A stretch of DNA of 64,000 nt, taken from Thermoplasmatota archaeon. Lineage in GTDB: Archaea > Thermoplasmatota > Poseidoniia > Poseidoniales > Thalassarchaeaceae. Made by a program: the position numbers and the translations under genes. The DNA is taken from the NCBI GenBank assembly GCA_036154155.1, contig JAYZLP010000012.1, positions 22,393 through 86,392 of the forward strand, read 5' to 3'. Below are positions 8,172-56,209 of this stretch, in pieces; positions within the stretch are counted from its first letter, which is position 1, and every line of letters starts with the position of its first letter. The notes under the pieces were generated by a model. It made no database searches. It worked only from the letters and a program-made list of their open reading frames with translations, and had not been told where the DNA came from.

Positions 8172-8176
8172 TCAAA

Positions 8177-8521: not shown

Positions 8522-8964
8522 AGATTGTTGTCCCGTCTTCCATCAGCCATCTGTTCAGCTTTCTCCTGCATCATGGAACGACGACGCATATCTTCCTTCT
8601 CGAATTTCATCATCTCCTTGTCCTCAAGGTAAGGAAGCCTCATGTGTGCGAGTAGTCGAACTTCTACAATCACGTCTCTGGCTATTGACCTGAAGGAGCC
8701 ACTCTCATCCATAATTTCTACAGCATTCCTGGTTGTCCCTAGTAACATTCCTCTGACCCAGTTATCGGAGCCCTTGGGAAGGGCACGAGAATCAATCAAT
8801 ATCTCTAGGAGATCATCCTTCCTCAGGCCCGCCCTCCTTTCAGAAAGAGGGCCATGGAAAACATCCTGAAGTTCATCCAAAGAAGGCGAACCGTGGGCTT
8901 CGTGAATTTTTCGAGCCCAATCTGGCAGACTGCTCTCCATGTCTCCTCCCTCAATGTCTGGCAT
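8512..8964 (-). CDS. Hypothetical protein
   Basis: 150-aa ORF in a compact co-directional gene string. No motif recognised. Confidence 0.4.
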   Translation of the reverse strand: MPDIEGGDMESSLPDWARKIHEAHGSPSLDELQDVFHGPLSERRAGLRKDDLLEILIDSRALPKGSDNWVRGMLLGTTRNAVEIMDESGSFRSIARDVIVEVRLLAHMRLPYLEDKEMMKFEKEDMRRRSMMQEKAEQMADGRRDNNLWG

Positions 8965-9074
8965 GCCCCTCCGTAGGGTATGTCATAGAAAAGGGGTGTG
9001 TTTCGATTATCGAATAATAATGCGAACTGCTCACTTGAAGAGGGATGGTTACCGCGAAGCGGCCGAGGGGTTAC

Positions 9075-10112: not shown

Positions 10113-10277
10113 CTACTCTACGTGCCAGTTGTGTCCGCATACGGTGCAATAGAGATTGAAACCGCCTATGGAAACAGGTAGCCCGCCCACGTCAATCTTG
10201 GATCCGCATCCCGGGCACTTCTCTGCGGCCATGCGTGTCCCACTATGATTCAGTTATTCAAGGAAACTGTGCATTAG

Positions 10278-10862
10278 TCAGGAGTCCCTGAACTTCTTCC
10301 ATAGGCTCTTGATTGGAAAAGCCATCTCACCTGCGCCCGCCAGTAACATGACGCCCACGCCTGCAAGGACAATTTCTACAAATGAGGAGAGGTGAACTTC
10401 AGTATTTATCGTGACAATCTGCTCATCGAGGGTGGACCCGTCCTTTCCAGCCGTAACAAAGCGATAATTGCCGGGCTTCAAAGTGAATTCGAAATCTCCG
10501 TCGTCCGAGTTCGGGCCTCCTGCTTCGTACTCGAAGTCCTCGGACGTGCACGAAGTTAAGCCATTGGAATCAGGAGGGCAATCTTCTGCATATTTCGCAT
10601 CAACAACCCCAATCCAACTTCTATCGGGTTCGTCCCACTGGATTTCAAGTTGGATGTCAAGGAGAAAGAATGACGCTGGAACATCGAGGTTTTCTGTTGT
10701 CATGCCGACTAGGCACCCAACTGAGTCGTCAGTGCAGGGAACTATTGGTACATCTGTCCTAGACTCATCTAAACCAACCCCAAGAAGGCTACCTAGGACC
10801 AATAACACGCACACTGAGCCAACGGCCCCGGGGAGAACAGATAGGATCCTTACCATGTTCAT
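10278..10862 (-). CDS. Hypothetical secreted / membrane-anchored protein
   Basis: N-terminal signal peptide (VLPGAVGSVCVLLVLGSLLGVGL) and a C-terminal hydrophobic anchor followed by a basic tail (KSLWKKFRDS). Confidence 0.5.
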   Translation of the reverse strand: MNMVRILSVLPGAVGSVCVLLVLGSLLGVGLDESRTDVPIVPCTDDSVGCLVGMTTENLDVPASFFLLDIQLEIQWDEPDRSWIGVVDAKYAEDCPPDSNGLTSCTSEDFEYEAGGPNSDDGDFEFTLKPGNYRFVTAGKDGSTLDEQIVTINTEVHLSSFVEIVLAGVGVMLLAGAGEMAFPIKSLWKKFRDS

Positions 10863-26659: not shown

Positions 26660-26745
26660 TGGTGCAGAGGGCAGGATTCGAACCTGCGAAGCACTTTGCA
26701 CCGGAGCTTAAGTCCGGCCCCTTTGACCAACTCGGGTACCTCTGC
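26660..26745 (-). tRNA. tRNA-Leu(UAA): tRNA-Leu (anticodon UAA), class II with long variable arm, CCA encoded
   Basis: Reverse complement reads GCAGAGG-TA-CCC-GAGTTGGTCAAA-GGG-G-CCGGA-CTTAAGC-TCCGG-(long extra arm)-GCAGG-TTCGAAT-CCTGC-CCTCTGC-A-CCA. There is a 7-bp acceptor stem, anticodon loop CUUAAGC, a GGTTCGAATCC T-arm and discriminator A. Confidence 0.85.
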
Positions 26746-26862: not shown

Positions 26863-29796
26863 GTGTATGCGAGCAGCATAGCGAATAGCGCGTCCCGCCG
26901 TTTCAGGCTGGCTCTGGCACTTTCCCTGCTGATGTTGATGCCCTTTGGCATGCTTTCCAACCATCAATCAGAGCTTCCAGAAGAAGTCAGGATGGAAGCA
27001 GGCTCCGATGTCCAGTTGAACCTCTATACAATGTATTTCGCTTCCCAGAATTCTTCCGCAGGCGGCGATGGTTACATCACAACACAGGTTCCCGAGTCAG
27101 GTGGCCAAGAGTCGATGAGCGCCCTAGACAGCAGCATAGAGTTCCGAACTAGTCCGATGCTGTCGTCTTTAGATGTAGCCGGACGCCCCAATCATGGCTC
27201 CGGCTCCGGATCTTACTACCTGCCACTGGGGCTATTCATGAGGGCGACAGGCCCTGACACTTCCTCTGTGGAGTGGACAATTACACTCAAGTCATCAGGT
27301 AGCCAAGTCGGTTCGGTTTCTTGGAGCACTGATGCATGCAATCCAGGGCTAACTCAGAGCTGTAGTTTCGACCATGAGACATTTGAAATCGACTTAGGGA
27401 ACGACCAGAGATTCACCATAGACAAGGACGAGCGCCTCGAGCTAATCGTCGATGCCGATATGTCTGGTTGTGACAGTAGCGGAAGCCCATTCGGCTCTAG
27501 TTGCGAGGCCGAGGTGGCATGGAATGAGATAGACGGCGACGACAGATTCAGCACCCTGGAGATCGAGGCAAATGCAATATCCAACAGTCTCGTTCTCCTA
27601 CAGAGGGAGGGTGCAGAGCTCGCAGAGGGGCCAGAGTTGGAATGGTTTCCGAATGACATCCTGTCTGAGAGGGTTATGCAGTTCTCTTTCGATGTCAAGA
27701 GCAGTTTTGGCAGGTATGACGTAGACTCGGTAAGGCTATTGATGCGGGATCCCGACGGAATGTACCGGATAGACCACGTAATTGATGAGGACGACGAGGA
27801 AATAGAGGACACAAGCCAAGGCATCTTTGGAGAGTACCTCTGGTCATACCCTAGCGGCATCCCCTCTGGAGAATATTCCGTCGAACTCGAGGTTTCTGAC
27901 ATCCAAGGTAATAGCGTCATAATCGAGCACGAACCCGTGACAATGGAGCAGTGGGGAGTTGCATTGAACCACAGGTTGGATCGAACTACAGAATACATAG
28001 CCCCCGGCCAAACAACCCCGGTTCCACTGCAACTAGTTCACAGGGGAGACTCCACGAAGTCGATGGACGTGGAGTTAGAGGTCCTCACAAACTTCCCAAG
28101 CTCTTGGTTGCTAGAATTCGACTCACCAGGCGGATACACACTCAATGCTGGAGGCGATATTCTGAATCCAATACTCACTCTTACCGCACCCGAGGATCTT
28201 ACAGGTGCCCCAGGCTCCATAGACATCAGAGCCGTTGCAGAAGCAGAGGTCGACGGCGTACTTACCGTTGTTCACCAGGACACCCTTCAGATTGACTTGG
28301 AGAAGATTGACGTTTACCAACCTCCTCAAGTATCCATATGGTCAGAAGACCACGACATCCCAATAGCAAACTCTTCACGCCCCGATGACATTGACTCAAC
28401 CATTCCCAGGTATGTCGACTACGACCAATTCACTCCATTCCTTCTTGAGATTTTCAACACCGGTTTCGATGCTGACACATTCAGGATCGACGTACTACAA
28501 AGATCCAAGTCAATCATTCACGTGTACGATAATGACACTGGCCAGAGAATTCTGGAGGACGAAGGTGACGGCACTTTCCATACGGCTCTCTTGGATAGAC
28601 ACGACACTCAAACGCTGAGGCTGATGATCAAGCCCTCGGCTGACAGAGAAGACCCCGACATCGGCCCGGTCGAGATAGAGGTGGTGAGCTCAGGAAACGC
28701 CTCTCTTAGATCCACGGTACTATTCACTATCCAACGCACATTTGGAATAAGGGCCGAGGTTTCCTATGACTGCGATGGTTCACCACTTGGCCACATCAGG
28801 GTTTCTCTTTGCGACCCCGGACCAGGAAACGCGGAAGTCTCCCTAAGGGCAAAGATCACCAATACGATGACATCCGGGGAATCCGCCACATGGTGGAGGA
28901 TCCAGAATCCAGCTTCATTGGATGATAACACCGATAGAAACGCCGCCTACGGGCAGTGGCAATTCCGGATCGAGGACTCGTCGGGTAATGCCGTCCCCAG
29001 GGTCTCTCTTGCCCCCGGCGACGAAACCGAGGTATTCGTGACCATCACTCTGACAAATCAGGTAGAGTTTGGCAATCACACAGTTTACCTCAGAATAGTT
29101 GAAGATACCACTGATGACGATGCCAAGTACTTCGATCTGCCAATGGTGTTTGAGATTGATCCCGATGACCCCAACTTGGAAATCGTACAAGTAACGCCCA
29201 ATAGACTTCTAGTCCCGGGGGAGTCTTATCCTATCCAGATGAAGGTCAAGAACTTGGGCAATAGCCCCCTCACAGTTCTCTTGGAGGCTGAAGTTGACGG
29301 GACCGGTTGGTCCGTTGACATCGATGGCCCATCGGGATCGGTTCTGATAGTGCTTGGTGCATTCGAAGAAGTCACATTCGTATTGGACGTTAACGTACCC
29401 GACTCTGCAAACAATGGCGAGACCGTAGATGTCCTAGTTTCGGCAACCCCATTCGACACGCAGCAGAGCTGGCCCGATGATGCTACGGCAGAGAAGACCG
29501 TTGTGATGAGGGTAGGTATTTCGTCACTAATTGACAGACTTGTAAACGAGATTACACACCCCCGACTTTCAACCTACATCGTGGGAATAGTTGCAGCAAT
29601 GCTACTCATCGCAGGAATCCAAGGCGCTATGAACAGGAGAAGGTGGAAGGCGCATATGGCATATTTAGATGCAATTTCCAGTGATTCAGACGAGGATTTG
29701 GAAGATGAAGAAGACGATGATTTACCCGCTCCAGTTGTGTCGATAGAAGAGGAAGAGGACGATGTATACGAGGATGACGACATCGAACTGGTTTGA
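26863..29796 (+). CDS. Large (977 aa) secreted type-I membrane surface protein with CARDB-like domains and poly-acidic cytoplasmic tail
   Basis: Signal peptide (LALALSLLMLMPFGML), long Asp/Thr/Ser-rich ectodomain, single C-terminal TM (IVGIVAAMLLIAGIQGAM). Tail is DSDEDLEDEEDDD...EEEEDDVYEDDDIELV. Confidence 0.6.
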   Translation: MYASSIANSASRRFRLALALSLLMLMPFGMLSNHQSELPEEVRMEAGSDVQLNLYTMYFASQNSSAGGDGYITTQVPESGGQESMSALDSSIEFRTSPMLSSLDVAGRPNHGSGSGSYYLPLGLFMRATGPDTSSVEWTITLKSSGSQVGSVSWSTDACNPGLTQSCSFDHETFEIDLGNDQRFTIDKDERLELIVDADMSGCDSSGSPFGSSCEAEVAWNEIDGDDRFSTLEIEANAISNSLVLLQREGAELAEGPELEWFPNDILSERVMQFSFDVKSSFGRYDVDSVRLLMRDPDGMYRIDHVIDEDDEEIEDTSQGIFGEYLWSYPSGIPSGEYSVELEVSDIQGNSVIIEHEPVTMEQWGVALNHRLDRTTEYIAPGQTTPVPLQLVHRGDSTKSMDVELEVLTNFPSSWLLEFDSPGGYTLNAGGDILNPILTLTAPEDLTGAPGSIDIRAVAEAEVDGVLTVVHQDTLQIDLEKIDVYQPPQVSIWSEDHDIPIANSSRPDDIDSTIPRYVDYDQFTPFLLEIFNTGFDADTFRIDVLQRSKSIIHVYDNDTGQRILEDEGDGTFHTALLDRHDTQTLRLMIKPSADREDPDIGPVEIEVVSSGNASLRSTVLFTIQRTFGIRAEVSYDCDGSPLGHIRVSLCDPGPGNAEVSLRAKITNTMTSGESATWWRIQNPASLDDNTDRNAAYGQWQFRIEDSSGNAVPRVSLAPGDETEVFVTITLTNQVEFGNHTVYLRIVEDTTDDDAKYFDLPMVFEIDPDDPNLEIVQVTPNRLLVPGESYPIQMKVKNLGNSPLTVLLEAEVDGTGWSVDIDGPSGSVLIVLGAFEEVTFVLDVNVPDSANNGETVDVLVSATPFDTQQSWPDDATAEKTVVMRVGISSLIDRLVNEITHPRLSTYIVGIVAAMLLIAGIQGAMNRRRWKAHMAYLDAISSDSDEDLEDEEDDDLPAPVVSIEEEEDDVYEDDDIELV

Positions 29797-29869: not shown

Positions 29870-32800
29870 TTGCGTAGCATGGACTCATTTAGTCAATCTA
29901 CAGGGTCGGACAAGGACGGCCTCAGGAAGGTCAGGTCGGCCATTATTTTCTCGGCCCTGATGCTCATTTCTTCGTACTCAGCATTGGAGTTCGCCGCTTG
30001 GGAGGCGTTGGCTTCAACCGATCAGGACGGCGATGGGCTATCTTACGGTCTCGAGTTCTACATCAATACCCAGCCTCAGGACTGGGACACGGACAATGAC
30101 GGTCTTCCTGACGGGTGGGAATGGCAGTACGGACTGAATCCACTCTCTGCTACAGGAGATAACGGATCCACGGGCGATCCAGACGGAGACTCACTTTCAA
30201 ACCTGAATGAGTTGATGTTCGGAATACCCGCGAACTGGGACGACCCAAACACTCCAAATGAGCTGGACAACGGCGTTTGGTGGAATGGCACGGTACCCGT
30301 AAGTAACTGGGACGAGGAAAGCGCCATGCAACTCATACAGGGACTGGGCTCCGACGGTGCTGATGAGGATCCGTGGGGAAACATTTGCTTCAACACATTT
30401 GATGATGACAAGGATGGTATGGTCGACAATTTCGACGGTGACGGTGACGGTGATGCGAACTGCACAAGTGATGACGATGACGGTGACGGCCTCATCGATG
30501 AGGATCCAAATGGTTGGGATACCGACGGTGACGGCATGCCTGATGGATGGGAAGTTGCAAATGGGCTAGACCCAACCTCACGTACCAACCAAGACGGAGC
30601 ATCGGGGGACCCCGATGGAGACGGGCTAGTGAACCTGAAGGAGTTCATTAACCCAGCTTGGGGGACCCGAAATGGAACTACTACCCCGCCCACACAGTAC
30701 TTCAGACCGGGTCCACTTGCCATGACTGCCACCGAATCGCCCTGCAATCCGGTACTGCAACTTGGACCAGGGGGGTGCCTGATATTCACAGCAGAGGTTG
30801 ATGGCATTACTTCTACGGATCCTCAGAATAACGACACTGATGGCGACGGACTCAATGACTCTCACGAAGCACTCGTTCTGCTAACCGACCCAACAGCCCC
30901 GGACACCGATGGTGACGGAATTAGTGACGGTGTGGAGGTAAATGGCCAGTATGGGGACCCTCCCCTGGCAAGCGACCCAAGGGACAACAATACTGACGAT
31001 GACCAGTTTGACGACGGAGAGGAGGACCTCAACGGGAACGGCATCGTGGATGAAAATGAGACAGATCCAACAAGGATCGAGGATTCTGGTGACTTCGATG
31101 ACGACGGCATACCTAACTGGGAAGAAAACATGACATGTACCCTCTGGAATGTTGCAGATACTGACGGCGGGGGTATTAGCGATGGCTCAGAGCTCGACCC
31201 GTCCCACGGAACAGACCCCTGCACTTCGCTTCAAACACTGAACCTGACAATAGTCGACTTCGATTCCACAAACATGATTCTCACGTTAAATGATACATCG
31301 GCACTCGATCAAACACCCGAGGATTGGAGGCAGAATGGTGAACCCATGGGGTACTACGTGTCATCAACAAATGGCAGCCTCACAGGATTCAGATTCACGT
31401 CCATCAATGGCGATTCATTGAGGGGCATAGACACGGACAAGCCACCTGATGCCACATCTGTGACATTTGTCAACTTCTCTTGGTGCTGGGATCAATCCCT
31501 AGGTTTCTCTAACGATCCAATTTGTGACGATGACTATTTCGACACTGATGGAGACGGGCTAGCCGATTGGGAGGAATCTACTGGGAGCTTTGGTTTCCTT
31601 TCCGATTGGAACATGTCAGACACCGATGGGGACGGGGTGAATGACCTAGATGAGATACTCAATCTAACTGACCCGAGCAATCCCTGTGATAACCTTCTGG
31701 ATTCAGATGGGGATGGTCTAAACAACTACTTTGAGAATACAACAGTTTGCTTGATTGCCTTCGGAGAATTGGGCGGAAATGGCACTACTGATACCTACTT
31801 CACACTGTGGAATGTAACTGACACTGACAACGGGGGAGTTACTGATTTCCAGGAGTATCTGGATGGGACGAACCCTCAGAACAATCCTAACGATGACCTA
31901 AATCCAGTGGATACCGATGGCGATGGGATACCGGACACCATTGAGAACTCTACGGGCACTGACTGGAGGGATCCGGATACTGATGGAGGGGGAGTTCCCG
32001 ATGGACAGGAGTGCACGTCCGAGTTTTGGGATATCAATTGTCTGAATGCCGATGGAAATCCGTGGGATCCGACGGATGATATAGACCCCAACATGATGTT
32101 CTTCGAGGCGATGAACACCTCGATGGGGGTGGATCCCAATATCACGCATTACTGGAGGTGGCATACCTATGACTTCTATACCGGGATTTCTTGGGGGGTC
32201 AACACTAGTCTCGTTGGGAATACGCAGATGTTCCCAGGCTTCTCGACCACACAGGGCGTTGCCGATCAGCAGTTCTGGGATGGTTCCGAGGTCCTTGGTT
32301 GGGAGATATCCCTTGAGTCGGGGGCGCTGATATTCCCTGGCGAGGAAATTATCGTACCCCATAACGCCGTAAATTACACTGGTTGGACCGATGCTAATGC
32401 TGGCCTTAACTTCTCGAACTTCACCAGGGATGCAATAGTGGACGGCGCAACCATAGACACGCTCTTCGTTACCGCCCCGCAAGTTCTGATCACCCAGGCG
32501 ATTAGGGAAAATACAACAGAGTTCTCCAATAGCAGCTATGCGACGGACCTCCCAAGCTCATATCTGGCAAAGGGCAATGCCGCCAGCTTCGTCAACTCAA
32601 TCACAATGACAGTAATCAATGAGTCAGGGGCGTTCTCCGCTTGGGACAGGGTATCCGCAATTCAGGACTTCATCATTAATGGCAACTCAACTACCTCTTT
32701 CTTGAGAAACCATAACGGGACCGAAGTCGGAGTCCTCGATGACGAGGATGACCTATCCTATTGGATTCTGAACAACTCGTTTGAGGGCGACTGTGACCAG

Positions 32801-35800
32801 TTCAGCACTCTTTTCGCCGTGATGCTAAGGTCCGCGGGAATCCCCGCCCGCAAGGTCACGGGTTTCTCTGGTGGGAAGTGGACAGGTACTTCTTTCGAGG
32901 TCTACGGCAAGGACTTCACAACTTGGGTAGAGGTGCACCTCCAGACAAACTCCAATCTAGGTAACGCGGATCTAGGATGGATACCCTTCGAGGCATGTCC
33001 ATCCCTGTCTACCGTCGAAGTAGTAGACGAGAGCTGGGGCCCAATCTGGTTCGACAGGGACCTTTCATCAGGCAATATTTCCCTGGATGGAATACTGAGG
33101 TTCACTGAAAACCAGACCTCTGTGGCGAATATTACCATTGACATGTACTTGGTAAAATCCAATCAGACGGAGAATGTCCCCGGTTCCGCTGCATTAGAGG
33201 AGCATTTCGTTGGTACAGCAATTACCGACGAGAATGGTTCCTTCAACATCACAGGGCAGCCCCAAGAGGTCATCAATCCAGGATATGGCGCTCTGGTTCT
33301 TCGAACTTATGAGGATGGATACGTCGGTTCACAGGGGATCACCTTCCCCTGGAGGATGAACATCACTGACGACGTAGCCATGTCCATTACCGAACCAGAG
33401 CCGGTGGATGAGCCAAAGATAGGGATCGGAGTGAACACTACGGTGACAGGCGAGATTTCACTCTCAAGTGAACCTTACAATGACATCACTCAACTGGATA
33501 GCCTACAGGTGGTTCTCAATTACACAACCACAGCCGATGGCCCGGTTAGCCTAATCTCCAGCGTCGGGGCTGGCGGCTATTACGAATTCTCCGTCCCAAT
33601 AGACGAATCTGAACAGGAGGGGCTGATAGCAGCAACCTTGAATTTCCTAGGCTGGCACGAGGAGGATCTCAACAATGCAACACCTCCCCTCTACCACTTA
33701 CGCCCCCAGTCTGTTGGATTCAACCTAAACCTAACACCGGCGCCTAACCTTACCGTAATTCTGGAGGGTCACGGGGCCAACAACACCATACTTGAGATCG
33801 ACCAGCCAATATACCTCAACGGAACTGTTCTGAGTAGGTCGGCCATCCCCGAGGCACTCAATGGCACTCTGACACTGCAGATGCGAAGATCCGCAGCCAA
33901 CGGGCCCTTTACAACCCTCAACTCGTGGTATCTTAACGACTCCGATTGGACGGGGGCCCTCGGGCAATTTGCAGTCAATTGGTCCTTCTCTGCATCAGAG
34001 GTACCCATTCCCGCTGGACTGGTAGAGATTCGTTACCAGTTCGAGGCGGACGGCCTCTTCGCGAAAGACGAGTCTGTGGTAATCGATGAGCACGGAGTAA
34101 AGAGCTACGTAAATTTCAGCTATATTCTGAATCCAGCTCCCGTGGGGTCAGACTCCGAGGTAGAAGTGACATTGTCAGACCATACTGGAAACTCCGTTGC
34201 GAGCTTCGTCGGGGACTACACATTGGACTTCAACGGCGAATTGGTATGGAATCAGTCAGATCCAGAGCTCCCGCGCGTGATGGTAACATGGAGGCCCACT
34301 ATAGACGTGGAGGCAGGGGACTACCCGTGGCAGCTGAATTATAGCGGGTCCACATGGCTTCTTCCAAACAGCGTGTTAGATACTGTCAGAGTCCAAGGCA
34401 GAGCCGACGTCTCATTTACCCTGGGCTCGGACTGGACCCCTAGAGGGCAATCATCATGGATTTCTGGTTTCGCCAGGGATATCAATCTGAACAGTACGAT
34501 TCTAGGAAATAACTCTTCCATCATCGTAAACATGGAGGTGCCATCCGACCAACCGCCTACTCCAGATGGCCTGGAAGCTCCACCTGTCACCTACAGGCTG
34601 GGGGAGCAGTGGATAGACAACACTACCGGCGAGTACAACATTACATTCCAGATGCCTAGCGGTGTAGGTGCCGGCGTCTACGACCTCAGGCTGATCCTTG
34701 ATTTCGAGAAGAACCCCCCCGCAGGTGGCGCATACTACCTTGTTTCCGGTGCAGTGGTGCTGCAAGCAGGCGTACAGACCGAGTACGTAGTGGAGGCAGA
34801 GCCATTGCAGTCCATCGTGATTGCAGGACAGACACTGGTAACGAATGCCACAGTCACCGATGTGGAGAGCAATGACAGGCTGCAGAACACCACCGTCGAC
34901 ATTTACTTCGATTGGGGAGGGCCACTGCAGCAGGTACTCAACTCCACAGTCACTGGTTCCGATGGCGTCGCAAGGTTCACTCCGACCATTCCTGCTGACG
35001 CCCCGCCCGGGTACTACGATGTCCGTCTACACGCACCGGATGACCTAACTGATAGTTTGACTACACCCAATGCAGGCAGGTGGATAGGGAATGAGAGCAC
35101 AGTGAACCTCACCGTGCAGGTCGCGAGTAGCATCAGAATTGACAATGCGCCATTGCCTGAAGTCACCGCCGGGCAATTTTTCCAACTGCAGGGGCAGGTC
35201 CTAGATGGGGTGGACCAGAATCGTTCAGTATCGGGCCCCATGACGCTGGAGGTCTTTTTCCTGAACGACCCCAGTGAAACCCTGGTCACAGGGCATGTCA
35301 CCGCAGCTAACGGATCGTTCTCTATAATGGTGCCAACTGATCCACTGGGGGATGGCGTGACTAACGGCCTCAAGACCGTCATAGTAAGCGTTGAAAACGG
35401 TAGTACCCCGTTCTACCTTACTGGTTCCGGGAATGAAACCATCCTGGTTCGAGGAGTCACCCAGTTCACTGAAAGGAACCCCCTACTCAATACAATAGTG
35501 GACAGGGGGACATCCATCACATTCGGAGCAAAGCTGGTAGAATCTAGCGATGGGGACAGGCAACTTTCCGACATGTCGGTTTCCGCATTATTCCACGAGA
35601 CGTGGCTAACCCCCGAACAACCGACAAATGGACAAGGCGTCGTCAACTTCACATTCTCAGTCCCTCATTCACATCCACTCGGTTTGATCCCGATAGTTCT
35701 GATGTTCAATGGCTCAAATGGTTCAGACACTCTCCATCCATCATCCACGGTTATCAACACAATCACAGTCAGGTCTCCAACCAACATTACGTTCGATCCA

Positions 35801-38800
35801 ATTACTTCCAACCCTGCTGCAGGGGAGTTCCTCGACATTAGTGGAACTTTGACTTCAAGTAATGGAAGTGGAATAGTTGACAGATCAGGAAATGCCCTGA
35901 ATCCGACTCTAAACTTCGCCATCGACGGGGACACCAATTCGTTCTCAGTCACTGGTGGCACCGTAGATGCCAATGGCACATGGTCGGCCAGAATCTTCCT
36001 GGACCTTTCTTTCCCACGTGGTACGCACAATATCACCGCCTCATATACGCCGTCCGTCAACTACTATGGCGCCAGTTCGGAGGACGGAATTTTTGACAGC
36101 AGAGGTTTCTCCATGCTATCCATAATTTCCCCAACTGATTTGGACCCCGATGAGAGAACTGTCAGAGGGGACAACATCACACTCAACATGTCATTGATTG
36201 ACAACTCCGGGCAGTTCGTCTCCGGAGCCCAGGTCGATGTTTCCATAGACGGGACGCCAGCATGGTCCGGCCTCACGAATGAGGATGGCATCGTCACTAC
36301 TGTAATCCCGACTGATTCCAACAGGGCTCCCGGACCGATGACAATCACCGCCACATTTGCAGGCTTCAATGGGACCACTGGCCTACTGGGTGATGAGACA
36401 TGGACAAGAGTGGTGATACTCGCCCCAACGGTTCTAGATGTGACTTCAATTACAGGCTCCGCAATCGCAGGCGAGTCAGTCACGTTCACTGGAACCCTGC
36501 TGGACGAGCATGGTGCACCCCTGATCGAGAATGGCGAAGAAAAGGGAGGTGTCGTCCACCTTTCCATAGATGGAATCGACGTAGGTCCTGTGTACACTTC
36601 AATTTCAAACTCCTCTACTGGGATTTGGAGCATTACTTACGATTTACCTCTTGATACAGACTATGGGGGCCACACTTTCACCGTCGACTTCCTCGGCGGT
36701 TTCACTTGGGTCGATCCCATGGGCCAGGGCGACTCCCTGAATCCAGAATACTATCTCCCCTCCACAATAACACAGGAATTCAACGCGACCCAGACATCCC
36801 AGGTTGTTCTTACGACCCCCCCAGGGGAAGTCGACAGGAACGAGCTGCTTCTCATAGAGGGAATGCTGACCGATGGCGCCGGAAGGGTACTTCCCGGACG
36901 AGATCTAGATGTCTATATGAACGACCAATTCCTAACATCCCTCTCTGTATCCGACAATGGTACGTTTAGCTTATTCTTCCCCGTACCTCCGGACATGCCT
37001 CTCGGACCAAGGAATGTTAGGATAGAATTTGGTGGAGAGGAGTTCGTAATCGCCTCTAACTCTAGCACTATTTTCACCGTTTTCGGTCCTGTCGAGGTGA
37101 GTGTTGAACAACCGGTTCCGGTCGCTGTTGGAGACGTACTACAACTCAGTGGTTCCGTCAAGGATAACCTTCCGAATGGGTGGCTTGGAAACCACTCGCT
37201 CCAGATCTTTATTGATGGGATCCTGATAGGCACTACTACTACTGATGAGGACGGGGCATGGTCCCATTCTTGGGTAGTATCCGAGTTCCTAGACGTGGGT
37301 CAGCACACACTCACGGTAATAGCCCCGGATCAGGGATATCACCGCGAAGGCTCCGTAGAGGCAAACCTGACAATAGCATACCACACCGGAATGACACTGC
37401 AAGTCGAGAACAATGTGGTGACAAGGGGCGGCGCATGGAACCTAAGTGGTAGGCTATTCGACGCCGACTCTGACGGCAATCCAGGTTTGGAGGGCAGGGT
37501 GCTTTCCTTCCTGCTAGATGGTGAAGAGGTTTCCACCATTACTACAAGCATAGATGGAACATTCAGCATTAGTCATGAACTGGGTTACCTGATTTCAAGG
37601 GGTTCACACGATGTATCATTGGCCTTCGCCGGCGAACAGCTGTACCTTTCAAACGTGATCAATGCGACTGTGTATGCCAGAGCCGACATTCAGATAGAGA
37701 TTCTATTCCTTGAGGATGAGGTCGTCAGAAGCGATGGAAATAGGCCGATTAGGGTTCTCGGCAGGATAATTGAAATCGGTGGGGAGGGCAACACCATGGA
37801 GGAGATGGACCTCTCGCTATACTGGGAGGATTCTCTAAGGCCGAATACGAAGATAACATGGGATGAGACAACAGGGCAGTTCCTGGTCGAGTCGAATGCA
37901 ATTTCAACAATGCCTCCTGGTGTGGCCAGCATGTCGATAGTTGTGGACCCCGACTCCTCAAGGTTCCTGAATGGGGGCGAGATTGATTTCGAGGTGATAA
38001 TCAAGGTTCCAGTGAACTTTGAGTTCCTCCCCGACTCTTTGTTCCTAGAAATAGGTCAAAGCTCCATGTCAGGAAAGGTGAATGTCACTGCCACGGACAG
38101 GGCCGAGGTCATAGAAGGAGTTTCGATTACCGCTAGGCTAGTCAACGAGACCAGTACACATTTCACTGTGGTAGGGGTCACCGATCAGAATGGCATCTTC
38201 ACATATCAGTTCGAGTCATTCCATGAGAACCATCCTCTATGGGACAGGGACTTCTGGGGGGACTTGTCGGTAGAGTTCAGTTCCGATTCCGACATTATCG
38301 ACCCCATTGACGCTGCTCGACTCTCACAGTTCGCCGTTGTCGATGTAGAATATCAGCCGGAGCAGGGGGCATCATTGGTGGGCCCTGCAATGACCGCACT
38401 AGCCATCCTTGTGATAATCGGACTAGCCGCGGCTGGCGTAATTGTGCTAAGGAGGAGGAAACAGGCTGCCATCGATGAGCTAGCAGGGGTGTTCAGCTAC
38501 ACAGCAGAGCTCTTGGCAGCAGGAGATGAGGTCAGGGAGGCTATATTCAACTGCTATGAGGGACTCTGTCAGATACTGATGAGCAGAGGTTTCCTGAGGA
38601 GAGATTTCGAGACAGTCAGGGAGTTCGAGCTAGCAATAAGAAACGCACTCCCAATAAGCGAGCAGGCATTGTTGTCTCTCGACAGAATTTTCGAGGAGGC
38701 CAGATACTCAAGCCACGTTCTCGGCGAGCCCCATAGGGAGAGTGCCCAGATGGCACTGAGCTCAGTTCTCCAAGAGATAGACCAGCTCGAGGAAGTCCCA

Positions 38801-38833
38801 TCTAGGGAGGCCTCAATAGTCCCTCAGGAATGA
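29870..38833 (+). CDS. Giant (2987 aa) surface protein: signal peptide, TSP3-like Ca-binding repeats, transglutaminase-like core, many Ig/CARDB-like domains, C-terminal TM plus DUF4129-like cytoplasmic domain
   Basis: Uninterrupted 8.96-kb ORF. Repeated DTDGDG(I/L)PDGxE motifs. Transglutaminase-like core GDCDQFSTLFAVMLRSAGIPARKVTGF...TWVEVHL...GWIPFE. C-terminal TM ALAILVIIGLAAAGVIVLRRRK. About 125-aa cytoplasmic tail. Confidence 0.75.
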   Translation: MRSMDSFSQSTGSDKDGLRKVRSAIIFSALMLISSYSALEFAAWEALASTDQDGDGLSYGLEFYINTQPQDWDTDNDGLPDGWEWQYGLNPLSATGDNGSTGDPDGDSLSNLNELMFGIPANWDDPNTPNELDNGVWWNGTVPVSNWDEESAMQLIQGLGSDGADEDPWGNICFNTFDDDKDGMVDNFDGDGDGDANCTSDDDDGDGLIDEDPNGWDTDGDGMPDGWEVANGLDPTSRTNQDGASGDPDGDGLVNLKEFINPAWGTRNGTTTPPTQYFRPGPLAMTATESPCNPVLQLGPGGCLIFTAEVDGITSTDPQNNDTDGDGLNDSHEALVLLTDPTAPDTDGDGISDGVEVNGQYGDPPLASDPRDNNTDDDQFDDGEEDLNGNGIVDENETDPTRIEDSGDFDDDGIPNWEENMTCTLWNVADTDGGGISDGSELDPSHGTDPCTSLQTLNLTIVDFDSTNMILTLNDTSALDQTPEDWRQNGEPMGYYVSSTNGSLTGFRFTSINGDSLRGIDTDKPPDATSVTFVNFSWCWDQSLGFSNDPICDDDYFDTDGDGLADWEESTGSFGFLSDWNMSDTDGDGVNDLDEILNLTDPSNPCDNLLDSDGDGLNNYFENTTVCLIAFGELGGNGTTDTYFTLWNVTDTDNGGVTDFQEYLDGTNPQNNPNDDLNPVDTDGDGIPDTIENSTGTDWRDPDTDGGGVPDGQECTSEFWDINCLNADGNPWDPTDDIDPNMMFFEAMNTSMGVDPNITHYWRWHTYDFYTGISWGVNTSLVGNTQMFPGFSTTQGVADQQFWDGSEVLGWEISLESGALIFPGEEIIVPHNAVNYTGWTDANAGLNFSNFTRDAIVDGATIDTLFVTAPQVLITQAIRENTTEFSNSSYATDLPSSYLAKGNAASFVNSITMTVINESGAFSAWDRVSAIQDFIINGNSTTSFLRNHNGTEVGVLDDEDDLSYWILNNSFEGDCDQFSTLFAVMLRSAGIPARKVTGFSGGKWTGTSFEVYGKDFTTWVEVHLQTNSNLGNADLGWIPFEACPSLSTVEVVDESWGPIWFDRDLSSGNISLDGILRFTENQTSVANITIDMYLVKSNQTENVPGSAALEEHFVGTAITDENGSFNITGQPQEVINPGYGALVLRTYEDGYVGSQGITFPWRMNITDDVAMSITEPEPVDEPKIGIGVNTTVTGEISLSSEPYNDITQLDSLQVVLNYTTTADGPVSLISSVGAGGYYEFSVPIDESEQEGLIAATLNFLGWHEEDLNNATPPLYHLRPQSVGFNLNLTPAPNLTVILEGHGANNTILEIDQPIYLNGTVLSRSAIPEALNGTLTLQMRRSAANGPFTTLNSWYLNDSDWTGALGQFAVNWSFSASEVPIPAGLVEIRYQFEADGLFAKDESVVIDEHGVKSYVNFSYILNPAPVGSDSEVEVTLSDHTGNSVASFVGDYTLDFNGELVWNQSDPELPRVMVTWRPTIDVEAGDYPWQLNYSGSTWLLPNSVLDTVRVQGRADVSFTLGSDWTPRGQSSWISGFARDINLNSTILGNNSSIIVNMEVPSDQPPTPDGLEAPPVTYRLGEQWIDNTTGEYNITFQMPSGVGAGVYDLRLILDFEKNPPAGGAYYLVSGAVVLQAGVQTEYVVEAEPLQSIVIAGQTLVTNATVTDVESNDRLQNTTVDIYFDWGGPLQQVLNSTVTGSDGVARFTPTIPADAPPGYYDVRLHAPDDLTDSLTTPNAGRWIGNESTVNLTVQVASSIRIDNAPLPEVTAGQFFQLQGQVLDGVDQNRSVSGPMTLEVFFLNDPSETLVTGHVTAANGSFSIMVPTDPLGDGVTNGLKTVIVSVENGSTPFYLTGSGNETILVRGVTQFTERNPLLNTIVDRGTSITFGAKLVESSDGDRQLSDMSVSALFHETWLTPEQPTNGQGVVNFTFSVPHSHPLGLIPIVLMFNGSNGSDTLHPSSTVINTITVRSPTNITFDPITSNPAAGEFLDISGTLTSSNGSGIVDRSGNALNPTLNFAIDGDTNSFSVTGGTVDANGTWSARIFLDLSFPRGTHNITASYTPSVNYYGASSEDGIFDSRGFSMLSIISPTDLDPDERTVRGDNITLNMSLIDNSGQFVSGAQVDVSIDGTPAWSGLTNEDGIVTTVIPTDSNRAPGPMTITATFAGFNGTTGLLGDETWTRVVILAPTVLDVTSITGSAIAGESVTFTGTLLDEHGAPLIENGEEKGGVVHLSIDGIDVGPVYTSISNSSTGIWSITYDLPLDTDYGGHTFTVDFLGGFTWVDPMGQGDSLNPEYYLPSTITQEFNATQTSQVVLTTPPGEVDRNELLLIEGMLTDGAGRVLPGRDLDVYMNDQFLTSLSVSDNGTFSLFFPVPPDMPLGPRNVRIEFGGEEFVIASNSSTIFTVFGPVEVSVEQPVPVAVGDVLQLSGSVKDNLPNGWLGNHSLQIFIDGILIGTTTTDEDGAWSHSWVVSEFLDVGQHTLTVIAPDQGYHREGSVEANLTIAYHTGMTLQVENNVVTRGGAWNLSGRLFDADSDGNPGLEGRVLSFLLDGEEVSTITTSIDGTFSISHELGYLISRGSHDVSLAFAGEQLYLSNVINATVYARADIQIEILFLEDEVVRSDGNRPIRVLGRIIEIGGEGNTMEEMDLSLYWEDSLRPNTKITWDETTGQFLVESNAISTMPPGVASMSIVVDPDSSRFLNGGEIDFEVIIKVPVNFEFLPDSLFLEIGQSSMSGKVNVTATDRAEVIEGVSITARLVNETSTHFTVVGVTDQNGIFTYQFESFHENHPLWDRDFWGDLSVEFSSDSDIIDPIDAARLSQFAVVDVEYQPEQGASLVGPAMTALAILVIIGLAAAGVIVLRRRKQAAIDELAGVFSYTAELLAAGDEVREAIFNCYEGLCQILMSRGFLRRDFETVREFELAIRNALPISEQALLSLDRIFEEARYSSHVLGEPHRESAQMALSSVLQEIDQLEEVPSREASIVPQE
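30020..32100 (+). repeat. Intragenic array of about 20 thrombospondin-type-3-like calcium-binding repeats (DxDxDGxxDxxE) in the giant gene
   Basis: Repeated gayacygayggngayggn-type codon strings encode DTDNDGLPDGWE, DPDGDSLSNLNE, DTDGDGMPDGWE, DTDGDGISDGVE and similar. Confidence 0.6.
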
Positions 38834-39303
38834 TCTTCCAGGGACAATCCCAAGGTGTGTCCGTTCCATGATGCATCCGAAATGAATGACCCAGTAGGAA
38901 GTCTGAAAGTCCTCAAAACTCCTCCAAAACCACTGGGCGCGATAATTCGAGCTATAGTGCCAGACTCGCCCTCCATGACTTCGAGGACGACCCCCCTTCT
39001 ATTCGCCGAAGGCATTGGAATCTCCATGTAGCTACCCTCTATTGAACCTCCTAGGTCAGCAACCATCTCGCCTATAGTTGTGACATCGCTGTTCGCCATC
39101 CTAGTCGACTCAGGAATGTCTCCAACCTGCCCCTTGAATTCCTCGTGGGACTTCGAGACCTCAGACATGTGCGGCAGGTCAGAGAGAAACTGCGCATGTG
39201 CTTCCGAGGCGGTAACATCGAGGCCCAAACCGACTCCTTGGAATTCATTTTCCGTAACAGCACCGCCGTCTGAGTCGGCAATTACAACCCTCCTCCACGT
39301 CAT
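38824..39303 (-). CDS. Hypothetical protein (about 160 aa) downstream of XPD helicase
   Basis: ORF-track entry 38824..39375 trimmed to the internal M (MTWRRVVIADSDGG) to avoid overlapping the helicase 3' end. No recognised motif. Confidence 0.35.
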   Translation of the reverse strand: MTWRRVVIADSDGGAVTENEFQGVGLGLDVTASEAHAQFLSDLPHMSEVSKSHEEFKGQVGDIPESTRMANSDVTTIGEMVADLGGSIEGSYMEIPMPSANRRGVVLEVMEGESGTIARIIAPSGFGGVLRTFRLPTGSFISDASWNGHTLGLSLEDHS

Positions 39304-39328
39304 GCTATCGTTGCCCCCAATGGCCCGA

Positions 39329-41350
39329 CTAAGATGAACCCATTGATTTAGGTATCCGGAAGAATCGCTCAACATGTTTGCCTGTTCTAGAGGGGCTAGA
39401 TGTCCTCAATGAGTCCATTGACCCGGGCATACAATCCCTGCTCCTTCCTTCCAGGAGCCTCTTCTCGAGAAGTACCACTATAGCCCTATCTTCTGCCTTT
39501 CTTATGGGTCTCCCGAGTGCCTGTAGGACGCTGTTTACGGCCGGCTGCAGACTTGCATACTTCCATGCCCTTGATCTCCCGAACCTGCTAGTGTAGTATC
39601 CAAACAGTGCCTCCTGCTTGGCACTGGGCGGGGGTAATGGGAGGCCAATGCAGACCACGGCATCAAGGATGTTGTCAGAGTAATCTATCCCTTCTGACAG
39701 TTTGCCGCTCAATACTCCGAAAATCACAGAATTCTTCCCCATCGACCTAAGTTCGTGTAGCCTATTGACCATTCCATCAACTGAGCGCTTGGACATGCCC
39801 CTTTCCTCCTTCAGGCGATGCCTCCCGAAGACGTACCCAGTCTCTGACGCAATCCTTTCCATCATGGAATAGCTGGGGGCGAAAATTGCAACGTTACCTG
39901 GAGTTTTTTCCAGAACGGAAGTTATGTGTTGGCTAATGGTCCCGAAACTCGACTCTCTCTCCGAGAACTTGCTCGTTACATCGCTGGCAATTAGTACATG
40001 TCTATTTTCAGGGGGAAATCCCGAATTGTACTCCTTGCCCCTATATCCTTCCTCGTGTATCCCTAGGATTTCGCAATACATAATTGGGGGAAATAGTGTT
40101 CCCGACATCAGAATTGAGCCAGCACACTCTTCGAAAATGGGGCCACCTACAACTCCTGGATCCAGTAAATGACTCGAAATCCGGGGCTCTTCCAATATGT
40201 TGTCGAACACTAATGCAAGGGCATCGCTATTTCTGTATTTGATGCAAACGTCCAGCATTTCCGCAAGTCTGATACAATCGTTCTGCTCTTCTTCTTCCAG
40301 TGAGTCGTCATCATCTATTTTCACCCTCATCAAGTTCCCAATCATTTCTCGGATAATCGAGATTTGATCGTTCGTCGAATCATCAAGCCCGACTATGGCG
40401 TTGCCTATGGCACCTAGGAACTCATTTGTCTCGATCCGTAGGTCATCCCAGTCAGACTCCTCGTTTTCCACGGTCTTGCTGTCGAACCATTTTCTCAGCA
40501 CAGTGTCATCTCTGAGGGCCTTAATCTGCTTCTCCAGCTTAACAGCGTCTCCGAAACCATATGCTTCACCGGTATCTAGCTGCAAGGCAACTTTCTCCAG
40601 GTTTCCCTTGTATTCCTGGACATCACTCAGCGCCCTTCTGAATACCTGATCAGTAATCCTTCTTTCCAATCCATTCCTGATTCGATCTGGTAGGTTATGG
40701 GCTTCATCAACTATCAATATAGACTCATTTAGATTAATCCCCATGGCCGGAAGTGAGCTTTCTCTGACTTCCTCGATGAAAATATGATTATAGTCACAAA
40801 CCAATACATCTGTATCTCTGGCAGCTGCCCTAGCGGCAGCCCATGAGCACACCCTTTCTTGCTTGCCATACTTTATTCCCCACTCGACATGCCGAGGCTC
40901 TGACAGGATAATGTCCTTCATCCTGTTTCTTTTTCTCTGCCTGCCCTCCTCCGTCGACTCCTTTTCACAGTTGCATTTACCGGTCGATTTGTCGATAACA
41001 TCACACATCCCCTCCCTTCCAATGATATCAACTAATTTGACTCTCGAAATTCCCGTTGGAAGCCTCGAGTTGATCATTTTGACGGTGTCAACAACGATCC
41101 TATGTTGCGATTGCCTACCTGTCATGAAAACAATCTTCGGCTTCAAACCCTCTTGGGACCTATCATTTGCAACATGCAATGCGGAAGCCAAGGACGCCGC
41201 AGTCTTGCCTATTCCTGTGGGCGCGGCAGCCAGCAGGGCTCCTCCTGATAGCAGGGAGTCTATTCCGTCCCTGATCATCTCGATTTGGGAGTCCCTCATC
41301 TTCTCATGAGCATGGTAAACTCCCAGATCCGGGGTATCGGAAGTGGTCAT
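39329..41350 (-). CDS. xpd: XPD/Rad3-family (DinG-like) 4Fe-4S DNA helicase
   Basis: Walker A AAPTGIGKTAASL and DEAH box VDEAHNLPD. Cys residues of the FeS-cluster insertion (GMCDV...GKCNC...RVCSW...LVCDY). Length 673 aa. Confidence 0.8.
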   Translation of the reverse strand: MTTSDTPDLGVYHAHEKMRDSQIEMIRDGIDSLLSGGALLAAAPTGIGKTAASLASALHVANDRSQEGLKPKIVFMTGRQSQHRIVVDTVKMINSRLPTGISRVKLVDIIGREGMCDVIDKSTGKCNCEKESTEEGRQRKRNRMKDIILSEPRHVEWGIKYGKQERVCSWAAARAAARDTDVLVCDYNHIFIEEVRESSLPAMGINLNESILIVDEAHNLPDRIRNGLERRITDQVFRRALSDVQEYKGNLEKVALQLDTGEAYGFGDAVKLEKQIKALRDDTVLRKWFDSKTVENEESDWDDLRIETNEFLGAIGNAIVGLDDSTNDQISIIREMIGNLMRVKIDDDDSLEEEEQNDCIRLAEMLDVCIKYRNSDALALVFDNILEEPRISSHLLDPGVVGGPIFEECAGSILMSGTLFPPIMYCEILGIHEEGYRGKEYNSGFPPENRHVLIASDVTSKFSERESSFGTISQHITSVLEKTPGNVAIFAPSYSMMERIASETGYVFGRHRLKEERGMSKRSVDGMVNRLHELRSMGKNSVIFGVLSGKLSEGIDYSDNILDAVVCIGLPLPPPSAKQEALFGYYTSRFGRSRAWKYASLQPAVNSVLQALGRPIRKAEDRAIVVLLEKRLLEGRSRDCMPGSMDSLRTSSPSRTGKHVERFFRIPKSMGSS

Positions 41351-50506: not shown

Positions 50507-53500
50507 TTACCTTTCACCCATGAGTCTGTTTAGGCGGCTTTCGAATGAATCGTCCTGACCAATTTCCGAGGCAGAAGTCCCCTCAGAGGTCACCTTTTCC
50601 CTATCTTCATCAGCAGATTCAGGCAAAACCTCCTCTTCGACATCGGCTATTTTCTCCTTGAGAGCGGCCCTTTTCTCAAGGGCCTTCTTCTCTACCGCCA
50701 ACCTAGTTTTCTCCATCATCTCTCGGCCTTCTCTGTAATTGCTGACCATCCATGAAAGTGCAATCGAAGCACCGATGACCATGGCAGCCGCGGCAACTGC
50801 CGTACTCGAATCGCTAATTCCACTATCCAATTCTTCGCCACCCGAAAGAATCACGCTGGCCACGTTATCCGAAGGATCAGAATCCTGGTCCCACGGGAAG
50901 TCACAGCTTATCGTGGCGACCATCTCGGTTGAATCCTCAACATCCGGCCTATCTATCGATGGCTTAGGGGCTAGGGCATTTGCAGATGTCATATCCACTA
51001 TGTGGACGGAAGTGTATTGCCCCGCTTCGATTTTTATGCTGCATTGCGTCCCTGAAGGGAGCAGTTCGAAATTTTCCCTCCTTGTGGAAATTTCAATTTT
51101 CTGGCTAGCACCCTGTCCATCCAGTTCTAGCTGAACCAAACCGACGTTCCAATCCGTTCTCCGAACTTCGAAAATCTGGGACTGGGACGTCACTAGGATT
51201 CCCCTAGAGTCCAGCAATCTGATTGAAATCTCCCTGTTACCCGGAAGTGGAGCCCATTCTTCCGAGGTCAAGTTGACTATTGCAGTCGTATTCCCCCCTA
51301 CAGTTCCGGATTGAGAAATCATCATGTCCCCCATGTCGTCGACTAGAATTATCGTGTAATCGAAAGGCTCGGTTCCATTTCCTATCGAACAGCTTGCCGT
51401 AATTTCGCCTATGCTGCCATAAACCAAGCAACTAGCCCCCCTGGTGACTGGCTCCACCACTATTGACCTGTATTCCAGACTTCCTTGGTCGGAACCCGAT
51501 GAAACCGAAATAGTGCCACTTCCACTGGATGTCGCCGGCCATGCCCAACCGCCAAGGGTACTCCAAATCAATGACCCTGAAAATGAATCAGTAACAATAG
51601 ATCCGGAATCAGTTCCATGAATTCCCAAAAGCGCGCTATCGCCACTAGTGGACACAATGACAGGGGAACTCGCCCATGAAAAATCCCCCTTCTCGGTATC
51701 CAGATTTATTTCCCTCTGGTTTCCGGCTGTATCTTCCGCCAGAATTCGTATGGTCTTTACACTGCCATCCCAGTCTTCACTAGGAACCAACTCTAGTGGT
51801 ACGCCGGTTACCTCGCCAACACCCAGTACGACCTCGGCTCTTCCTGAGACGGACCAACCAAGTGGAAGACTTAGGACTTGTAATGAGATGGTGCTAGGTG
51901 CGTTACCAAGGTTTTCGAGCATGGCCAATGGGTGTCCTCCCAAATCACTCACTAACCAGTCCCCTTCTCCGGTAAGAGAGAACTCATGCGTGACTGCCAC
52001 CCTTAGTGGGAAAACTATCTCGGAGGCCGCACTAGAGTCGCCTTCCCTTAGGCGGAGGTGAAGCTCCACGGCCCTTCCATAGACCGCATTCTCTGGAGGG
52101 GTGATGTTGAGAATTAGTGGCGCAGTCTCCCCTGGTGAAAGGACGGGGAGCTCGTCGGGCTCATCTACGGACCACCCTGACTCCCCTGTAATGAACATGG
52201 AAGCATATGCTCTAGTGGGCGAGTTACCAGACTGCACAACTGTGAGCTCTATCTGCGAACCTAATGGGTCGACCTCAAGATTCGCCTGATCAGCTATCGC
52301 GTTCCATGATGGGACATGGCCTGCCTCGATAGTGAATGAGAACGTAGAAACCTCTTCTCCTTGGGAGGATGCGGTGACTACGACGGTCATGGATGATCCG
52401 CTCCATGATTCAGCATCGACAGCTGAAACTATGCTCATAGAAACAGTCTGGTTGACTGCGACATTTTGCGCCGAGTCCCCAGTGGCGCTCCATCCTGTAG
52501 CCGAGTCCCCGTCCACTAGGTCAAGCGAGGTCACCACATCAAGATCGATTCCATCTTCCAGATTGCCCACATTTTTTGCATCAACGTCCAAGGAGAACGA
52601 GACTCCCGGATCAATGACGAAAATACTGCCATTGGCCATAGGTACAGAATCGACACTAGCGCCGATATCCCACCTGTGGTCCTGCCTGGCCTCAAGGGCA
52701 ACGGCGTCGGAGGATGATACTCCTGGATCGCCTTGTGAAATTACGGTGAACTCAATCCACAATGGAACTCCTGCAGGCGTACTTTCAGGTAGAGTTACCG
52801 TTACTGGAATAGTTGTCAGGCTCCCCGAAGTAAGTCCGACTTCTCCTATTGAGAAATCCACAACTACTCCAGGGTCGCTGGAAATATTGGAGTCTATAAT
52901 CACCGAATAGCCAAGTGAGTATACGTCATCTCCGTTACCGGGATTCTCGAGTCTGAGGACGACAAGGGAGCCTTCCTCAACATCAACCACATGCGGCTGA
53001 TCTTGGGGCGAAATTACAGCCACATTCGCTCTGAAAATCTGCAATACCTCCAACGTTATGATTAGGTGGTGTTCCGAAGACTCCTGACTCGTGTCCGAGA
53101 AATAGTGGAATGCCGGAGAAGCATCCTCGGGGAGGTTAGCAATTAACGAACCCGAAGATGTTCCGCCAGAGGGTCCGGCCATAGTTATCATATCACCCGA
53201 AACTGAGATGTCACCAGTTCCGACCCAGGACCACCCTGGCATTGCCATCCCCATTTCAGAAAGTGACCATGTGATTGTCCCGCTTTCAGCCGGCATTTCA
53301 GAAATTATCGACCATTCGAGTCCATTCGCGGGAACACTTCTGATGTGATTTCCAGAAACAACGTTCGAAGAATGGAATGTCAATTGTATGGTCTGGCATG
53401 TCTCTTCTTCCGTGCCCGTGCCAACGCACATGGTTAGAGGCGTGCCAACGGAATCTCCCACTGGTGCGTCGGAAGGAACCGCTAGGGTTGCAACTAACGC

Positions 53501-56137: not shown

Positions 56138-56190
56138 CAGAGTCAAATTTGGTTTTCGTAACCCACTTGAACGTTCGCCCCATATTCTCA

Positions 56191-56209
56191 CTCAGACCTA
56201 CGGTCTGAG
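56191..56209. promoter_or_regulatory. 8-bp inverted repeat (CTCAGACC-TAC-GGTCTGAG) followed by ATATAT in the divergent region between the giant surface-protein gene and the rpoE operon
   Basis: Read directly: ctcagacc tac ggtctgag, then catatatc. Confidence 0.3.

Follow-up and report, generated by a model that had tools for sequence, protein, structure and literature searches.

Among the closest described counterparts of the protein analysed here is TgpA of Pseudomonas aeruginosa (PA2873), which is active as a transglutaminase in vitro and whose periplasmic domain (residues 180-544) is predicted to lie between six transmembrane (TM) helices. TgpA is 668-688 residues long, has an intact Cys-His-Asp triad and is co-transcribed with PA2875 and PA2874 (PMC3507681). 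A TgpA-type homologue in Cupriavidus metallidurans CH34 contains TgpA_N (residues 38-359), Transglut_core (397-502) and DUF4129 (607-668, 47.9 bits), the last preceded by '...LLALLPLWLRRRH', and its gene sits after genes equivalent to these two, for a MoxR ATPase and a DUF58-like protein; the latter was recognized from a weak PF01882 match that fell short of the cutoff. DUF4129 is a widespread domain for which, to our knowledge, no function is known. Here we describe a DUF4129 tail at the C-terminus of a giant surface protein encoded on a 64-kb stretch of DNA (64,000 nucleotides of contig JAYZLP010000012.1, hereafter the window) from an archaeon of the Poseidoniales (Marine Group II). This uncultured group is the most abundant among the planktonic archaea of surface ocean waters.

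We consider it likely that the C-terminal 145 residues of the giant protein represent the membrane-anchoring and cytoplasmic DUF4129 parts of a TgpA-type envelope protein, in which the DUF4129 helical bundle would serve as an intracellular docking or assembly platform. The DUF4129 core is under strong protein-level purifying selection, stronger than in the remainder of the protein and much stronger than in the TM helix. The domain assignment as such is correct but routine; automated annotation already labels such tails DUF4129. What is added here is the contrast in conservation, a degenerate catalytic triad and a conserved peptide in a candidate partner protein. In the literature searched, no study addressed DUF4129 in archaea or connected Marine Group II with transglutaminase, and a survey of the Poseidoniales notes only widespread 'thrombospondin' genes as adhesion candidates (PMC6461757). 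The features of the giant gene and its product are listed below.

29870..38833, + strand: giant gene, 2987 codons from a TTG at 29870 (first ATG at 29879), with a TGA stop at 38831-38833
Order of domains in the giant protein: N-terminal hydrophobic segment, TSP3 repeats, transglutaminase-like core, many immunoglobulin (Ig)-like domains, TM helix, DUF4129 tail
29939..30001, + strand: N-terminal hydrophobic segment of 21 residues (residues 24-44), with K/R residues before it
32756..32995, + strand: Transglut_core (residues 963-1042), Pfam match of 49.3 bits
38396..38449, + strand: single C-terminal TM helix, ALAILVIIGLAAAGVIVL (residues 2843-2860), the hydropathy maximum of the protein
38450..38461, + strand: basic stop-transfer cluster RRRK (residues 2861-2864), directly after the TM helix
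38462..38830, + strand: predicted cytoplasmic tail of 123 residues (residues 2865-2987), net charge -13, no N-x-S/T sequon
38552..38758, + strand: DUF4129 (PF13559) match (residues 2895-2963), covering the whole profile
38588..38641, + strand: conserved motif GFLRRDFETVREFE.AIR (residues 2907-2924), with LRR.FETVREFE, A and R invariant; loop and start of the third helix, containing the family-wide E-T-x-x-E
38678..38716, + strand: conserved motif LDRIFEEARYSSH (residues 2937-2949), containing the family-wide (F/Y)..ARY(S/G)

The giant protein shares with the TgpA family an extracytoplasmic transglutaminase-like core, a final TM helix, a basic cluster and a C-terminal DUF4129 domain. Because the Transglut_core is present in the same polypeptide, the tail can be regarded as part of an inherited TgpA-like module and not as an unexpected addition. 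In contrast to TgpA, which has a five-helix TgpA_N (DUF3488) region, the giant protein has one N-terminal hydrophobic segment, and PF11992 (TgpA_N) was not matched in it at E ≤ 1. Furthermore, the catalytic His and Asp of the intact TgpA triad are lost in the giant protein, which alone of the two has TSP3 repeats and some 1800 residues of Ig-like domains within its 2987 residues, and the MoxR and DUF58 neighbours of the Cupriavidus homologue have no counterpart within its 64-kb window. Given these differences, we class the giant protein not as an orthologue of TgpA but as a DUF4129-tailed transglutaminase-like surface protein, a type that is also found in metagenomes. A preliminary description of the window, made from the letters of the DNA, had noted that DUF4129 occurs at the C-termini of bacterial membrane transglutaminase-like proteins, and both the Cupriavidus homologue and the product name of Ralstonia records at NCBI ('DUF3488 and DUF4129 domain-containing transglutaminase family protein') bear this out; the same description did not connect the tail with the Transglut_core of the giant protein itself.

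The DUF4129 tail and its membrane helix

The peptide ALAILVIIGLAAAGVIVL gives the highest Kyte-Doolittle 19-mer of the giant protein, with a mean of 2.81 against 1.70 for the next unrelated segment. It lies in frame in the open reading frame (ORF) at 29870-38833 (+), as expected from the earlier proposal of a C-terminal TM helix followed by a tail. That proposal had placed the region at 38395-38833 and given the tail about 125 residues; the end is correct, whereas the start is one base early (the first codon begins at 38396) and the tail has 123 residues. In every orthologue shown, the TM helix is followed by a basic cluster, which reads RRRK, RRKR, RNRK, RRRR or QRRR, and the same succession of TM helix, basic cluster and DUF4129 is found in members from Streptomyces, Mycobacterium marinum and Cupriavidus. 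The composition of the tail (E 14.6%, R 8.1%, N 1.6%) is unlike that of the ectodomain.

The clear reading is that the tail is cytoplasmic, as had been supposed, because a basic cluster follows the TM helix (the positive-inside rule), because sequons are confined to the ectodomain and because the bacterial members have the same order of elements; the N-terminal hydrophobic segment enters into this assignment as well. That segment (residues 24-44) is predicted to be a signal peptide or signal anchor that places the bulk of the giant protein outside the cell. In the Pfam scan, the TSP3 repeats occupied about 400 residues before the Transglut_core, and Ig-like domains filled about 1800 residues between the core and the TM helix. 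The ectodomain (30002-38395) contains 85 N-x-S/T sequons versus 33 ± 5.5 in composition-matched shuffles, an excess that suggests very heavy N-glycosylation, and its lysine content is only 0.7%. An AlphaFold2 model of the C-terminus (predicted local distance difference test score 79) shows one unbroken helix from residue 2837 to 2883, covering the TM helix, and then four further short helices, in line with the helical tail described earlier. The statement that the C-terminus is not a PGF-CTERM/archaeosortase signal was likewise upheld: the PGF motif is absent from the last 250 residues, neither Pfam nor NCBIfam gave a match to a PGF-CTERM model, and the TM helix is followed by 123 folded residues. 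A PEP-CTERM match of just 10.6 bits (E 0.65) was rejected.

The profile evidence shows that the tail is a DUF4129 domain, as the preliminary description had suggested from resemblance. When the C-terminal 168 residues were scanned in isolation, the PF13559 hidden Markov model (HMM) gave 31.2 bits (E 2.3e-7), above its gathering cutoff of 24.8 bits. It could be argued that a helical profile with so little information was matched by chance, as it is short (69 positions) and scores 24.4 bits in the full-length protein, just below the cutoff. This explanation is refuted by comparisons that start from the tail itself. Searching annotated plasmids with the 123-residue tail by tblastn retrieved DUF4129 genes of Streptomyces (E 5e-5) and, weakly, of M. 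marinum (E ~1), whose products score 53 and 43 bits on PF13559, respectively. In hhalign, the profile of Marine Group II tails aligned with the Streptomyces protein over 107 columns with a probability of 97% and an E of 1.1e-10. The two have in common the motifs CY, which falls in the first helix of the domain, E-T/S-x-x-E, F.EARYS.H and HR..A..AL; the tail segments NCYEGL, FETVREFE and FEEARYSSH align with ACYATM, SDSPQDLLE and FREARYSTH of Streptomyces. The tail motifs also match the consensus of 31 distant relatives, of which 29 pass PF13559. An HMM search of the whole library with the tail profile returned 2622 cluster representatives at E ≤ 0.001, and in every long protein listed from this search the match lay at the C-terminal end.

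Protein searches with the tail agree with this assignment. Most of the 120 homologues listed carry a precomputed PF13559 match, and two of them, from metagenome-assembled genomes (MAGs) of Thalassarchaeaceae and Poseidoniaceae, bear the NCBI name 'DUF4129 domain-containing protein'. All 120 are shorter than 300 residues, and the search appears to be limited to proteins of less than about 1.75 times the query length, since a 52-residue fragment of TgpA returned matches of 91 residues or fewer. The many DUF4129 proteins below 300 residues in the protein collection are gene-calling fragments of the giant ORF and not separate genes, with the search length limit probably contributing. In two loci the giant ORF is broken by frameshifted long-read assemblies, and in a third an intact ORF of 2844 residues is present (positions 2018-10552 of that locus), yet just its last 183 residues were called. 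Databases therefore under-represent the full-length giant protein and over-represent short 'DUF4129 proteins'.

Fold searches with the tail found no specific structural relative. We considered whether the tail might be a divergent HEPN-like four-helix domain with an RNA- or nucleotide-related activity, an explanation that is disfavoured and very improbable: the resemblance in fold is weak only, the candidate R-Y-S-S-H is misspaced for the Rx4-6H motif, and its His is not conserved. Matches of the tail to sequences in the PDB (for example 4-chlorobenzoate CoA ligase, E 0.02) were spurious, being driven by the TM helix and low complexity.

Relatives of the giant protein in Archaea and Bacteria

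An archaeal parallel in domain content is WP_232688761.1 of Halobacterium zhouii (922 residues), which has a Transglut_core (97.7 bits), an Ig-like domain of the Fn3_arc family and a C-terminal DUF4129 (37.8 bits). It is one third of the size, has no TSP3 repeats and, unlike the giant protein, is encoded beside DUF7269 and DUF58 genes. The succession of core, Ig and DUF4129 thus has a precedent in Archaea. Among annotated proteins of the plasmid collection, those nearest to the tail in sequence are Streptomyces WP_331744552.1 and M. marinum WP_244602506.1; in these, as in the giant protein, DUF4129 is C-terminal and immediately follows the last TM helix. In contrast to the giant protein, these actinobacterial proteins are small (325-353 residues) and multi-pass, have neither a large ectodomain nor a transglutaminase core, and are encoded in operons with MoxR and DUF58. 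Taken together, these actinobacterial, betaproteobacterial and haloarchaeal DUF4129 genes all have DUF58 as a neighbour, and the three bacterial ones MoxR also; the usual partners of DUF4129 may thus plausibly belong to this cytoplasmic chaperone-like system.

The giant protein also resembles large metagenomic Ig-repeat surface proteins that end in DUF4129. Among the 31 relatives sampled (611-3012 residues), 29 matched DUF4129, 16 Big_3_5, 14 CarboxypepD_reg, 13 Big_1, 7 Transglut_core and 6 TSP3_bac, so that most of them, unlike the giant protein, are without a detectable transglutaminase core. Their tails have the consensus RRR...SET.REFE...EEARYS.H. One distant tail relative of 1193 residues (P0154) has a weak DUF4381 match (22.5 bits, residues 975-1107) overlapping its DUF4129 match. 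DUF4381 is a family with a TM helix and a helical tail that is linked with MoxR/Bat operons, and the DUF4129 and DUF4381 families may be related.

Conservation of the tail and of the transglutaminase-like core

We searched for orthologues among GTDB species representatives and examined the best 80 of 517 confirmed stretches. These 80 loci with the tail motif all come from Poseidoniales MAGs. The tail of the window protein is 100% identical to that on contig DAQP01000043.1, which is labelled 'Euryarchaeota archaeon UBA438'. Measured from stop to stop in the 53 loci with sufficient sequence, from about 50 Poseidoniales species, the orthologous ORFs span 2979-3105 residues. The full-length alignment comprises the window protein and 52 orthologues (n=53; the entry representing the window's own contig was omitted), which are 57-96% identical to it. 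Wherever the locus is long enough, the gene order is that of a 977-residue membrane protein, the giant protein, a convergent 183-residue gene and an XPD helicase. The constant length of a surface protein of almost 3000 residues and its conserved synteny in about 50 species make it a probable core component of the envelope or of the machinery for adhesion to particles or cells. Tails of the Poseidoniales type also occur in records with other labels, namely contig PBAZ01000027.1 (labelled Chloroflexota), which has both the tail and the synteny, and protein P0105 (labelled Pelagibacteraceae), which has the tail; both probably stem from contigs assigned to the wrong bin in public MAGs.

Identity to the window protein is spread very unevenly over its length. 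For the 47 orthologues below 70% overall identity, the mean is 62.9% over the entire protein, 81.1% in the TSP3 repeat block, 31.9% in the outer juxtamembrane segment (residues 2801-2842), 27.2% in the TM helix, 79.2% in the whole tail and 85.5% in the DUF4129 core, the highest of any region. The TM helix and the juxtamembrane segment are thus the least conserved parts of the giant protein (27-32%) and adjoin a strongly conserved tail, which had been singled out beforehand for comparison with the tails of homologues. At the codon level, first, second and third positions of the DUF4129 core are identical in 80%, 95% and 41.5% of cases, respectively, across 74 orthologues; third positions are saturated, and the constraint therefore acts on the protein and not on the DNA. 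In an alignment of 32 tails, 29 residues are invariant, including many with a charge, and these 29 are concentrated in GFLRRDFETVREFE.AIR and LD..FE.ARY (residues 2937-2946).

These results bear on two simpler explanations of the tail. It might be a passive anchor, that is, a folded cytoplasmic 'plug' that stabilizes the type-I orientation and retention in the membrane and binds nothing. Such a role would be in keeping with a single-pass protein that has a basic stop-transfer cluster, with the generic helical bundles that are the sole structural matches, and with the Pfam scan, in which no enzymatic or signalling domain was found in the tail. A plug, however, would need neither the roughly 29 invariant residues, many charged and gathered in one loop-helix, nor 85% identity while the TM helix drifts to 27%, and the recurrence of the domain beside MoxR and/or DUF58 genes in unrelated lineages implies a specific function. 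We regard a passive anchor as rather unlikely. Alternatively, binding of a ligand to the ectodomain, or tension on it, could be relayed through the helix to the DUF4129 bundle and onwards to the cytoplasm. The preliminary description had proposed such transmembrane communication or else cytoskeletal anchoring, neither of which is supported by the measurements made here. The tail is conserved and predicted to be cytoplasmic, and the unbroken helix that runs from the membrane into the first cytoplasmic helix in the AlphaFold2 model might allow a rigid connection. Transmembrane signalling nevertheless seems quite unlikely, as the segments through which a signal would pass, the TM helix (27%) and the outer juxtamembrane region (32%), are the least conserved, no kinase, cyclase, HAMP or DNA-binding output was found in the tail or the conserved neighbours, and the literature searched describes no DUF4129 protein acting in signal transduction. 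A conserved, charged bundle carried on a freely drifting TM helix thus points to a docking or assembly site rather than to a plug or a conformational relay.

The transglutaminase-like core shows a conservation pattern of its own. Its best relative of solved structure, in a sequence search of the PDB, is the periplasmic domain of TgpA (6g49). In the part at 32786-32995 (residues 973-1042) of the 53 aligned Poseidoniales sequences, Cys975 is invariant (53/53), the position of the catalytic His (1018) is occupied by T, S, W or R, and that of the Asp (1041) by E (49 sequences) or Q (4). The core is therefore probably no canonical transglutaminase or protease, and would instead be a pseudo-enzyme or possess a non-canonical, Cys-only site.

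A candidate docking partner and the neighbouring genes

In the docking model that we favour, the N-terminal hydrophobic segment would export about 2800 residues, comprising TSP3 repeats of the calcium-binding type, the transglutaminase-like core and N-glycosylated Ig-like domains, and a single helix would cross the membrane and lead straight into a tight cytoplasmic bundle made of four more short helices. The invariant charged loop-helix surface of this bundle (LRRDFETVREFE.AIR and EEARYS) would bind a partner in the cytoplasm or the membrane, thereby linking the giant ectodomain with the inside of the cell. From the gene context in bacteria and haloarchaea, the MoxR AAA+ ATPase and/or DUF58 would be the obvious class of partner. 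In the Poseidoniales, the sole constant neighbour is a type-I membrane protein of 977 residues, whose C-terminus is a candidate for binding to the Arg-rich side of the bundle.

26863..29796, + strand: upstream partner gene (977 residues), 73 nucleotides upstream of the giant gene on the same strand
29767..29793, + strand: nearly invariant C-terminal peptide YEDDDIELV-COOH of the 977-residue protein

The 977-residue protein has an N-terminal signal, a C-terminal TM helix (29575-29631) and an acidic cytoplasmic tail, and its gene adjoins the giant gene in 57 of the 57 loci with enough upstream sequence. The ectodomain, with five sequons only, shows weak matches to Ig-like domains of the CARDB and NPCBM_assoc kinds, below the Pfam cutoffs. 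Two elements stand out in the C-terminal part: a conserved juxtamembrane NRR(R/K)W..H.A motif and, at the very end, Y-[DE]-D-[DE]-[DE]-I-E-L-V, which is near-invariant in about 55 orthologues and is preceded by a variable acidic linker. The peptide resembles a short linear docking motif and may act as one; EEDDVYEDDDIELV would accordingly be the candidate peptide ligand for the tail of the giant protein.

Several points weigh against the docking model. No MoxR (AAA_3) or DUF58 gene was present among the ORFs scanned across the 64-kb window, and the tails of the giant protein and its neighbour are both net acidic (-13 for the giant tail). The partner is a candidate proposed from gene order and the conserved peptide, and the orientation of the tail is argued from the positive-inside rule, the distribution of sequons and analogy. 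In addition, PF13559 falls short of its cutoff in the full-length protein, and structural searches with the tail model, which returned generic helical bundles only, are uninformative on function.

It is tempting to speculate further that the giant protein and its 977-residue neighbour form a two-protein envelope complex throughout the Poseidoniales, in which the pseudo-enzyme core would be used for binding and the DUF4129 bundle would capture the Y-D/E-D-D/E-D/E-I-E-L-V-COOH peptide of the neighbour under the membrane. We consider this specific proposal unlikely as it stands. If peptide docking were true, a concrete molecular function would be assigned to DUF4129 for the first time, with the implication that bacterial DUF4129 domains dock MoxR/DUF58 components likewise. 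The conservation pattern marks where selection acts inside the cell, which provides a small, defined target for work on DUF4129 function, with a candidate ligand next door.

Downstream of the giant gene, the convergent 183-residue ORF (38824-39375, - strand) is the only other ORF that reaches the tail interval, overlapping the last 10 nucleotides of the giant gene. It has no Pfam or NCBIfam match and overlaps the start of the XPD helicase gene (39329-41350, - strand). Its conservation in 77 related loci, with 25-45% identity, marks it as a real gene, and it is probably co-transcribed with XPD.

A second giant surface protein, of 1894 residues, is encoded elsewhere in the window (50510-56191, - strand). 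It has FG-GAP matches and weaker matches of the CARDB and NPCBM_assoc types, no DUF4129 match, and ends in a C-terminal TM helix and a charged cytoplasmic tail that looks coiled. On the other side of the surface-protein gene pair, a gene for tRNA-Leu (anticodon TAA; 26660-26745, - strand) lies about 120 nucleotides upstream of the gene for the 977-residue protein and divides the pair from a cluster of 2-oxoacid dehydrogenase and lipoate genes.

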